59,127 nucleotides of DNA from an uncultured Candidatus Bathyarchaeia archaeon (GTDB lineage Archaea; Thermoproteota; CALKCG01; B24; JAWCPE01): NCBI GenBank assembly GCA_964396445.1, contig CAYNFI010000007.1, positions 1-59,127 of the forward strand. Direction: 5' to 3'. The notes under the pieces are model-generated. The model made no database searches. It saw only the letters and a list, made by a program, of their open reading frames with translations, and was not told the DNA's origin. Below are positions 35,961 to 39,671 of the stretch, in pieces. Each line of letters begins with the position of its first letter. Within the stretch, counting starts at the first letter, position 1. The position numbers and the translations under genes were made by a program.

Positions 35961-35988
35961 TGGAAAGCTAGGAAGGGATTTGAACCCT
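35961..35988 (-). repeat. Second, more degenerate copy of the tRNA 3' end (T-arm)
   Basis: AGGGATTTGAACCCT (35974-35988) identical to 39402-39416; preceded by TGGA as in the tRNA CCA end. Confidence 0.5.
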
Positions 35989-36112
35989 TAACTAGGATAT
36001 AAAGAGTTGATATCCATTACATCTAACAGGGGAACATTAGTCCAATAATATCATATATGTGAATGACTTTTCAATATTTTTACCTTGAAGTAAGGTTATA
36101 AAAAAATGCTTA

Positions 36113-36143
36113 TATGGAGCCTCGGGATAGATTCACATCCTCG
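36113..36143 (-). repeat. Degenerate att-like direct repeat of the tRNA-Thr 3' end
   Basis: 25/31 identity to 39388-39418, first 15 bp (TATGGAGCCTCGGGA) identical. Confidence 0.75.
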
Positions 36144-36351: not shown

Positions 36352-36861
36352 CTACTGGTTCTCAAGTAGCTTCTTCCTCAAGAACTCTCTGCGTTGTCCT
36401 CTATCCATCTTCTCAATTTCAGACTTTAATTTCTCCTCTATAAGCCTCATCTTGCTTCTAGTGTACAACGCATCATATACCACACCAGCCTTTTCTACCG
36501 CCTCATGATCGTCTTTGGCAATGATGGAGATTCCACTCATAACTGCTTCCAGTCCAGTCGCCTCTGGGGCAGCCTCCATTCTACCTGTGTCAGCGGCGCG
36601 AACAATTTTTGCCAATTCCAATACTGCCAGATCCTTTATCTCATATTTTTCAATGATTGCGTCAAAGCTACATTTCTCGCCATGATGGCCCAGTTCAACA
36701 CCTTGGACATCATAAGGAGTGGCGTTCTCCTTCTTGGATGTCTCCAGAACCTCCTCAGTTGACACGAAGATGAACTCTGCTCTAGGGTCAACAAATCTTT
36801 TAATCAGCCATGGACAGGCTGTTCTATCCACGTGAACGTGTTCACGTGTTACCCATTTCAA
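36352..36861 (-). CDS. Chromate resistance protein ChrB-like
   Basis: MKWVTRE.VHVDR.ACPWLIKRFVDP, LGHHGEKCSFDA, IVRAADT. Confidence 0.85.
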   Translation of the reverse strand: MKWVTREHVHVDRTACPWLIKRFVDPRAEFIFVSTEEVLETSKKENATPYDVQGVELGHHGEKCSFDAIIEKYEIKDLAVLELAKIVRAADTGRMEAAPEATGLEAVMSGISIIAKDDHEAVEKAGVVYDALYTRSKMRLIEEKLKSEIEKMDRGQRREFLRKKLLENQ

Positions 36862-37007
36862 CTATTTTCACCATCCTCTACTGATTTCATCTTCACTCTC
36901 GTCTAATAAATATGTACTATTTCCTTTTTCAATTATATGTCGGGAAACCAGTTGTACTCGGATCCGGCTTGTTTTCGCAAAAGAAAAAATTAATTAACTA
37001 CTCCTCC

Positions 37008-37027
37008 CATCCCTATGGAGGGGATAT
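37008..37027 (+). promoter_or_regulatory. Putative CsoR-type operator
   Basis: C-tract/G-tract pseudo-palindrome ATCCC-TATGGAG-GGGAT ~10 bp upstream of the csoR ATG. Confidence 0.5.
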
Positions 37028-37037
37028 TACTGTGAGT

Positions 37038-37298
37038 ATGCATAAGAAAAGCGAAGACATCATAAAACGTCTTGCCAAGGTAGAAGGCCACGTGCGTGGA
37101 ATATCTAAGATGGTTCAAGAGGACAAGGACTGCCCAGCTATACTTCTTCAGATTGCCGCTGTGCAGTCTGCTCTAGGCAAGATAAGTCAGATAATGCTTG
37201 AGGATCATGTTGAGACATGCGTTGCTAAGGCGATTAAAGAGGGACGCGGAGAGGCAGCAATTCAAGAACTCAAAGAAGCAATAGCCCGCCTTATATGA
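37038..37298 (+). CDS. csoR: CsoR/RcnR family metal-sensing repressor
   Basis: RLAKVEGHVRGI, C(PAI)...H(VET)C metal ligands; start placed at ATG 37038. Confidence 0.9.
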   Translation: MHKKSEDIIKRLAKVEGHVRGISKMVQEDKDCPAILLQIAAVQSALGKISQIMLEDHVETCVAKAIKEGRGEAAIQELKEAIARLI

Positions 37299-37325
37299 CT
37301 CAGAATACAAAATGGCGACTAAACT

Positions 37326-39167
37326 ATGAATAGATTAGATGTGGCTCTCTTCGGCTTCTGTCTAACACTAACAGTAGTCAGCGGTCTCCTTCAAATATCA
37401 GGTCTTCAGCTAAAATTTTGGGCTGATATCTTATCTCTAATTGCAGCTCTTGTAGGCGGATCACTAATCATTTTAGAGTCCGTTAGAGCACTTCTTCACA
37501 GAAATTTCGGTATTGACATCTTAGCCAGCTTCGCCATATGGATTTCTGTTCTGGTGGGGGAGTATCTTGCCGCAGCAGTTGTCGTGATAATGCTGAATGG
37601 AGGGGGACTGCTCGAAGAATATGTTGCTGGCAGATCCTCAAGGGCAATAGAGAATCTAATCAAATCAGCGCCTATGACTGCACGCGTCCACAGAGATGGA
37701 AAGGAGATCGAAGTCTCTCTTGACGATGTTAAAGTGGATGAGACAGTTTATGTGAATCCTGGCGAAAGGATTCCCGTCGATGGCATTGTTGTGAAAGGAA
37801 ACGGTTTGGCAAATCAAGCAATAATTACAGGTGAGTCTGTTCCTTCGGAGAAATTCATAGGAACCACCGTCTACGCGAATACAATATTAGAGAATGGAAC
37901 ACTCGATATCCGCGTAGCAAAAAAGTCTAATGATACAGTCTTTGCACATATCATTAGGCAGGTTGAGGAAGCTCAGCTCAGAAAGGCACCTGTGGAGAGG
38001 CTTGCAGACAGGTATGCACGCTGGTTTGCACCAATAATCCTTTCAGTGGCCATCATTACCCAGCTGGTTATTAATAACTTAATATCTACAGCAGCTGTGC
38101 TCGTCATCTCATGTCCCTGAGCGTTAACGCTGGCAACGCCAACGGCGGTAGCAGCAGGGTTGGGGAACTCAACTCGCAACGGTGTACTGATACGGGCAGG
38201 AACATATCTTGAAGAGGTTGGGCGATGCAATGTCGTTATCCTAGATAAAACAGGGACAATCACATTGGGCGAGCCTGAAGTGGCAGATATAAAACCTCTC
38301 GGAGGCAAGACCATCACAGATGTTCTTTCAATCGCTGCTACAGCAGAACAGAGATCTGAACACTCCCTAGCCAAAGCAGTGATTGATAAGGCAAGAGAAC
38401 ATGGAGTAGTCTTTGCTTACCCCGATGAGCTTCAGGTGAAACCTGGTCATGGAATGGTCGCAAAACATTCTGGACACACGATCCTCGTGGGCAACTTGAA
38501 CCTTATGGGCGAGTATGGTGTTGTGTTGAATGATGAGTCTGTTAATTATATGAATGTTGAAGCTGCTTTAGGTCGGACAGTCGTGGTTGTAGCAGAAGAT
38601 ACGAATGTTGTGGGGTTGATAAGTATAGCTGACACTTTAAGGGAGGGGGTCAAAAACGATGTCACAAAGATAAAGCAGGTGGGGGTTGAAAAAGTTGTGA
38701 TGTTGTCAGGAGACACGCTTCCAGTTGCCAGAAAAGCGGCCAGTCAAGTCGGAATAGGTGAGGTGCATGCCAACCTTCTTCCGGAGGACAAGGTGAAGTA
38801 TGTTGAAGAGTATAGAAGAGAGGGAAACCGCGTCATCGTTGTTGGCGATGGCATCAACGACGCCCCAGCCTTAGCTTCTGCAAACGTCGGGATAGCAATG
38901 GGTATTACTGGAACAGATGTGGCGATGGAGACAGCTGGAATTGTTCTAATGACAGATGACTTGAGTAAAGTTGCTAAGACTATGCATTTGAGTAGAAAAG
39001 TGTTATCTATAGTGAAACAGAATGTCATTTTCGCTTTGTGTGTTAATGTAACTGGATTATTCTTATCTACTCAGGGGTTCATAGGTCCTGTGATAGCATC
39101 TGTCATTCATGAGGGCAACGCTCTCATTGTGGCCTTGAATTCGTTAAGGCTGCTTGGCCGAATCTGA
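37326..39167 (+). CDS. Heavy-metal P1B-type ATPase in one frame interrupted by an in-frame TGA at 38118-38120 (CP*)
   Basis: TGES, ISCP*ALTLATP, DKTGT, SEHSLA, GDGIND, HEG; the two ORF-track pieces are in the same frame (39-nt gap without stops). Confidence 0.85.
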
Positions 39168-39389
39168 CCTTAATTCTGTGCACAAGACATTAGTTTCAGC
39201 TAGCTTATTTTAACTGTTGTCAGTGGATTAGCGCATGATGGTCTGAGAGAGCACGCACAGGCGTAGTTCGTCACGACCTCGGCTTTCCGAGGCTTCAAAC
39301 ACCACACTTACGTGGGTAAGAAATCTCGAATTTGACGTTGAATCATGGCTATTTCGCCAAAATATAGATAGATTATTTTTCTTCTTTTA

Positions 39390-39465
39390 TGGAGCCTCGG
39401 GAGGGATTTGAACCCTCGACCTACAGCTTACGAGACTGTTGCTCTGCCAGCTGAGCTACCGAGGC
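39390..39465 (-). tRNA. tRNA-Thr(CGT), intronless, CCA encoded
   Basis: GCCTCGG/CCGAGGC acceptor, anticodon loop CT-CGT-AA, GGTTCAAATCC T-arm, 76 nt. Confidence 0.95.
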
Positions 39466-39548
39466 GCTTACAGGGTCTCATTGATTCATGTATGATAAAA
39501 AGATTGCTTGGGAAATGTTTAAAGGAGGCTTTTAAAATTTAGGTTTTT

Positions 39549-39671
39549 GGGTCGCTGACCATAGGGTGTGGGTCCTACCCGCTCTCGTTCCGAACGCGGA
39601 AGTCAAACCATACCACGTTTCCTGCCTCTGTAGTGCGGAAGCCTACGTGAGGTGGGAAATGTTAGCGACCC
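39549..39671 (+). rRNA. rrf: 5S rRNA (stand-alone, divergent from tRNA-Thr)
   Basis: Helix I GGGTCGCTGAC/GTTAGCGACCC, CCATAG, TCCGAAC..GGAAGTCAA signatures; 123 nt; TATA-like TTTAAA upstream. Confidence 0.92.

Follow-up and report, generated by a model that had tools for sequence, protein, structure and literature searches.

A recent TGC-to-TGA change at a metal-binding cysteine codon very probably inactivated a CsoR-linked heavy-metal ATPase in a Bathyarchaeia population

The gene for a P1B-type heavy-metal efflux ATPase, linked to a CsoR-type repressor gene on an accessory islet of a Bathyarchaeia genome, is interrupted by an in-frame TGA codon, and it was very probably inactivated by a recent single-base nonsense mutation (TGC to TGA). 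The TGA is a real base change that is confined to a single lineage, and the search for recoding signals found none. An earlier note on this DNA had left the choice between selenocysteine and a nonsense mutation undecided. The nonsense part of that statement was strengthened by TGY codons in all close homologs, by the confinement of the TGA to one lineage and by the failure to find a SECIS element, while the selenocysteine part lost ground.

Results

The ATPase gene and its interruption

Positions 37326 to 39167 on the plus strand of the window (i.e., the whole stretch of 59,127 nt that was analyzed) form a single frame of 613 codons, in which the TGA at codon 265 is the lone interruption (Table 1). 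The codons around the stop are TCA TGT CCC TGA GCG TTA (S-C-P-*-A-L) and, when read through, the flanking residues are VISCP-X-ALTLATPTAVAAGLGNSTR, where X denotes the TGA codon. The protein read through the TGA is covered end to end by TIGR01525 (heavy-metal P-type ATPase; 565 bits against a cut-off of 346, E 2e-169), scores 475 against TIGR01512 (cut-off 313) and contains the Pfam domains E1-E2_ATPase and Hydrolase; an HMA domain (PF00403) was not found in it by Pfam. The earlier description of S-C-P-*-A-L within a 613-codon frame, with both halves otherwise intact, agrees with the sequence and with this full-length match. Downstream of the TGA, the P-domain motifs DKTGT and GDGIND are found at residues 307-311 and 507-512, respectively, the N-domain motif SEHS at residues 344-347 (38355-38366) and the TM6 motif HEG at residues 595-597 (39108-39116).

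The profile match above the curated cut-off and the presence of the catalytic motifs TGES, DKTGT and GDGxND identify the protein as a P1B-type ATPase, while the TM4 CPx motif is not intact in an uninterrupted ORF and instead reads S-C-P-TGA. The ATPase is a P1B-type member by descent and a broken copy as encoded. Gene callers predict the upstream half as a separate product of 264 aa (10 contigs) and the downstream half as a product of 300 or 335 aa. Alignment with 22 homologous proteins, down to 48% identity, showed a cysteine at the TGA position in every one of them (S-C-P-C or A-C-P-C), which bears out the earlier claim that the stop falls exactly on the second cysteine of the CPC motif.

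In most members of the clade to which this ATPase belongs, the P1B-signature "HP" of the N domain is replaced by "HS". The clade also combines S-C-P-C in TM4 with HEGN in TM6, a mix of P1B-1/2-like and P1B-4-like signatures, and the transported metal can therefore not be read from the motifs. Cu(I) or another thiophilic metal is the probable substrate of the pump, with a specificity that the motifs leave uncertain.

Table 1. Positions of the ATPase gene, its in-frame TGA and neighboring features in the window
Feature	Position	Strand	Evidence or remark
Partial direct copies of the 3' part of tRNA-Thr	35968-35988 (90%), 36109-36143 (80%)		repeat families D3, D4
ChrB_C-domain gene, divergent from csoR	36352..36861	-	PF09828, E 1.6e-48
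CsoR/RcnR-family metal-sensing repressor gene, 88 aa, ends in TGA	37032..37298	+	PF02583, E 1e-25
ATPase codons 1-264: MA, MB, M1, M2, actuator domain (TGES 168-171), M3, start of M4 ending S-C-P	37326..38117	+	motif and profile matches
In-frame TGA, second Cys of the TM4 CPC metal-binding motif	38118..38120	+	alignment to homologs
ATPase codons 266-613 and own TGA stop: rest of M4, P domain, N domain, M5, M6	38121..39167	+	open frame collinear with homologs
3' intergenic region, expected place of a SECIS	39168..39389	+	about 94% identical to that of the TGC sister
tRNA-Thr(CGT), right border of the islet	39390..39465	-	tRNA detection

Presence of the TGA in independent assemblies

The same TGA was found in seven contigs, L082-L087 and L091, each of which comes from a different assembly and shows 0 to 2 differences from the window over 2.5 to 3.3 kb. 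Contigs L082-L087, which represent five JGI samples and one ENA assembly, are identical to the window from 36900 to 39400, apart from a synonymous C/T difference in L086. Contig L091, from another and older JGI sample, has kept the TGA with two differences in 3328 bases. Only three differences were seen within the TGA lineage, namely the synonymous C/T in L086, an L4V change in the ATPase of L091 and a TAA instead of TGA as the csoR stop in L091 (contig position 5, corresponding to window position 37297). The TGA was also found, with no differences across the site and at a depth of about 10 to 25, in Logan contigs of runs X1-X4 and X11. These runs, deposited between 2017 and 2020, are metagenomes of sediment and freshwater sediment that come from different samples and studies, and the Logan evidence consists of assembled contigs from five run assemblies. 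No RNA run was found to contain the gene. The TGA carriers form a near-clonal population of Bathyarchaeia, present in several sediment metagenomes.

As these independent assemblies all show TGA, a read error, which the earlier note had considered as a source of the base, is excluded. An artefact of sequencing or assembly is likewise excluded, given that the identical base was recovered in the seven contigs of different assemblies and, at the depth stated, in the five Logan assemblies.

Distribution of the TGA among relatives

The named homologs of the ATPase are from Candidatus Bathyarchaeota or Thermoproteota MAGs, which places the organism in Bathyarchaeia. The nearest relative (P0002/L081; 96% amino acid identity), referred to here as the sister strain, carries TGC at this codon; the JGI sample from which it originates belongs to a numbering series that also includes four of the TGA samples. 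Run X10 also carries this TGC strain. In two outgroups the codon is TGC (L088) and TGT (L001). One C-to-A change thus distinguishes the TGA from the TGC that the sister strain and L088 share, in line with the earlier remark that a single base separates TGC or TGT from TGA.

All nine Bathyarchaeia relatives with 70-96% amino acid identity have TGY at this codon, and recurrence of the UGA in orthologs of other lineages, by which selenoproteins may be recognized, was not observed among them. Among 139 fetched loci, the pattern C-P-TGA-A-L-T was confined to the seven contigs that belong to the lineage of the window. When the N-terminal fragment was used as a query, no divergent protein ending at S-C-P came up; the sole match (P0122) belongs to the same lineage and has one L4V change. 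The earlier note had also raised the possibility of a TGA in close homologs, and none has it: all have cysteine (TGY), with the TGA in one near-clonal lineage only. Since the TGA occurs only in the lineage of the window and the relatives all have TGY, it arose by one recent C-to-A substitution on a single terminal branch.

Substitutions in the two halves of the gene

Pairwise dN/dS against the sister strain was 0.31 for the whole gene, 0.51 for the part upstream of the TGA and 0.20 for the part downstream of it, where the frame shows no further lesion. When changes were polarized with the two DNA outgroups, L088 and L001, 13 synonymous and 16 nonsynonymous changes were assigned to the window lineage, as compared to 5 and 6, respectively, in the sister strain; the ratio of nonsynonymous to synonymous changes is therefore the same (16:13 versus 6:5) on what is a short branch. 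The number of unique residues (11 in the window versus 4 in the sister strain) was not accepted as a sign of relaxed constraint, because the window branch is longer and has this same ratio. As the ratios are equal and the branch is too short, the test does not separate continued selection from recent death of the gene, and dN/dS does not discriminate between the readings.

Search for recoding signals

TGA terminates 10 of the 44 long ORFs in the window, including those of the ATPase and csoR, which rules out a genome-wide reassignment of this codon, and the ATPase gene is the only long frame in the window that is split by TGA. A BHB mini-intron was likewise ruled out, as the gene is collinear base for base with that of the TGC sister strain and has no inserted bases. 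No genes for selenocysteine machinery (tRNA-Sec, PSTK, SepSecS, aSelB or SelD) were found in the window, where the only tRNA gene encodes tRNA-Thr.

The usual place of an archaeal SECIS element is the 3' UTR. The 222-nt 3' region of the ATPase gene is nearly the same in the window and in the sister strain (L081 3340-3560), including its one clear hairpin (39276-39296), which indicates that no new element was gained along with the TGA. This non-coding stretch is as conserved between the two strains as the coding region. In the euryarchaeal SECIS, a GAA_A bulge is flanked by two stems, and three S:S pairs lie above the bulge (PMC13188914). On both strands of the whole window, a permissive scan gave 0 matches to the GAA_A pattern, which describes the euryarchaeal type and from which a Bathyarchaeota SECIS may differ, and an Rfam scan of 37300-39480 (E<=10) found no SECIS family, the eukaryote-like model included. 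For the 70 nt that follow the UGA, folding is no stronger than for shuffled sequence (z -0.57) and weaker than for the corresponding segment in the sister strain, and a bacterial-type SECIS directly after the UGA was ruled out by this unexceptional fold. The earlier statement that no convincing SECIS was found was thus upheld by pattern scan, Rfam scan and folding alike.

Genomic neighborhood

The ATPase gene starts 27 nt after csoR, for which an 88-aa gene call is also found on L082-L087. The ligand pattern of CsoR is Cys-His-Cys, which marks Cu(I)-type sensors. The trio of chrB_C, csoR and the ATPase gene is also present in the relatives L081 and L088. About 3.3 kb upstream of the tRNA-Thr gene, two partial copies of this tRNA were found, for which the matching segment of the tRNA end is 39384-39418; these copies look like successive att scars at the left border of the islet. 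The islet has no integrase, and the unit formed by the three genes fits a small integrated accessory islet. The location of the ATPase gene in an islet flanked by tRNA-Thr-derived repeats indicates that it is accessory and dispensable.

Past the 3' non-coding stretch, the sister strain L081 carries a different tRNA-like sequence (GGAGCCCCGGGCGGG...), which suggests that not all strains carry the islet at the same tRNA gene. A 5S rRNA gene was observed at 39551-39670, beside tRNA-Thr and away from any 16S or 23S gene in the window.

Discussion

Probable inactivation by a young nonsense mutation

The proposed course of events is that TGC changed to TGA in the ATPase gene and that the mutant allele became fixed in one near-clonal Bathyarchaeia population. 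Translation would then end after S-C-P in TM4, and the predicted 264-residue product would be without the second metal-ligand cysteine, the DKTGT phosphorylation site, the nucleotide-binding domain and M5/M6. Lacking these parts, such a product could not pump, and the truncated ATPase would be non-functional. The remaining frame would still be intact since the lesion is young. Some findings count against a nonsense mutation: the intact downstream frame, together with the dN/dS in this part, would also fit a gene under selection, and the stop is located exactly on a metal-binding cysteine, which is the usual place of selenocysteine.

Alternative explanations

In the alternative that the UGA encodes selenocysteine, a working pump would have a C-P-U site in TM4, produced by a Bathyarchaeota-type system (PSTK-aSelB, SepSecS and tRNA-Sec) together with a SECIS of an undescribed type. 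The exact alignment of the UGA with a metal-ligand cysteine and the intact frame downstream are both as expected for a selenoprotein. Moreover, a selenocysteine system with a PSTK-aSelB fusion has been reported in diverse Bathyarchaeota (PMC8762117; PMC9499178), so that taxonomy alone does not exclude selenocysteine; the earlier list of archaea with selenocysteine (Methanococcales, Methanopyrus and Asgard lineages) was incomplete in this regard (PMC8762117). A family of bacterial selenocysteine-containing heavy-metal ATPases also exists (TIGR01525, UxxC; PMC13188914), but in these known ATPases selenocysteine is found in the N-terminal HMA CxxC motif, a domain that the ATPase described here does not have, and the 11 known archaeal selenoprotein families do not include an ATPase (PMC13188914). 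Neither the GAA_A pattern, Rfam nor folding revealed a SECIS, and since the 3' region is about the same as that of the TGC sister strain, a change from cysteine to selenocysteine would need a SECIS that existed beforehand. With the TGA confined to one near-clonal lineage and no second long TGA-split frame in the 59-kb window, selenocysteine is considered very unlikely. If it were true, a P-type ATPase would for the first time have a C-P-U transport site within the membrane, and the protein would define a new, twelfth archaeal selenoprotein family.

Low-level readthrough of UGA is a general property of ribosomes, and a near-cognate tRNA-Cys, tRNA-Trp or tRNA-Arg could occasionally read through this codon, so that a little full-length pump is made and the allele is a hypomorph rather than a null. 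The intact downstream frame and the persistence of the allele in samples deposited from 2017 to 2020 are compatible with such a leaky stop, but a young neutral lesion in a clonal population would account for this persistence equally well, and no readthrough-promoting structure follows the stop; we regard a leaky stop as unlikely. A pump reassembled from two separately made halves, the second starting from TTG 38160 or ATG 38265, would agree with the downstream products of 300 or 335 aa predicted by gene callers. However, the break lies inside TM4, the second cysteine ligand would be lost, 13 to 48 residues around the conserved ALTLATP stretch would go missing, and no relative has such an organization, which together make a working split pump highly improbable.

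Implications

The TGA is a real but ordinary finding: in a clonal sediment population, an accessory metal-efflux gene was very probably lost through a single substitution. It provides a clean example that an in-frame TGA at a cysteine codon is not evidence for selenocysteine, because TGC and TGT are one step away from TGA. In annotation, the two ORF fragments should be marked as one pseudogene. The TGC and TGA alleles occur in the same JGI sample series, and the pair could therefore be tracked over time as a natural gene loss.

Comparison with known systems

The nearest solved structures to the ATPase are Archaeoglobus fulgidus CopA (PDB 3J08; full-length match, E 1e-104) and the P1B-4 pump sCoaT of Sulfitobacter (PDB 7QBZ; full-length match, E 1e-99). 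Like these P1B-type ATPases, the protein described here has TGES, DKTGT, GDGxND and the TM4 CPx in place. Unlike them, it is encoded without an N-terminal HMA domain, the second cysteine of its CPC motif is replaced by a stop, its P1B-4-like HEGN in TM6 is combined with S-C-P-C in TM4, and "HS" replaces "HP" in its N domain.

The bacterial selenocysteine-containing cation-transporting ATPase (ABB15669.1; PMC13188914, PMC1976440) belongs to the same superfamily and likewise has an in-frame UGA in place of a metal-binding cysteine. In that protein, selenocysteine is part of a UxxC motif in the N-terminal metal-binding domain, a SECIS directly follows the UGA and the hosts are bacteria, whereas here an archaeal protein with no HMA domain has the UGA in TM4, and the search for a SECIS found none. 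The gene shares more with ordinary nonsense pseudogenes of accessory or island genes, i.e., a codon that is one base away from that of the nearest relative, occurrence in one clonal lineage, no recoding signal and location in a dispensable island gene. There is no material difference from such pseudogenes, and the case is notable only in that the codon of a functionally critical cysteine was hit.
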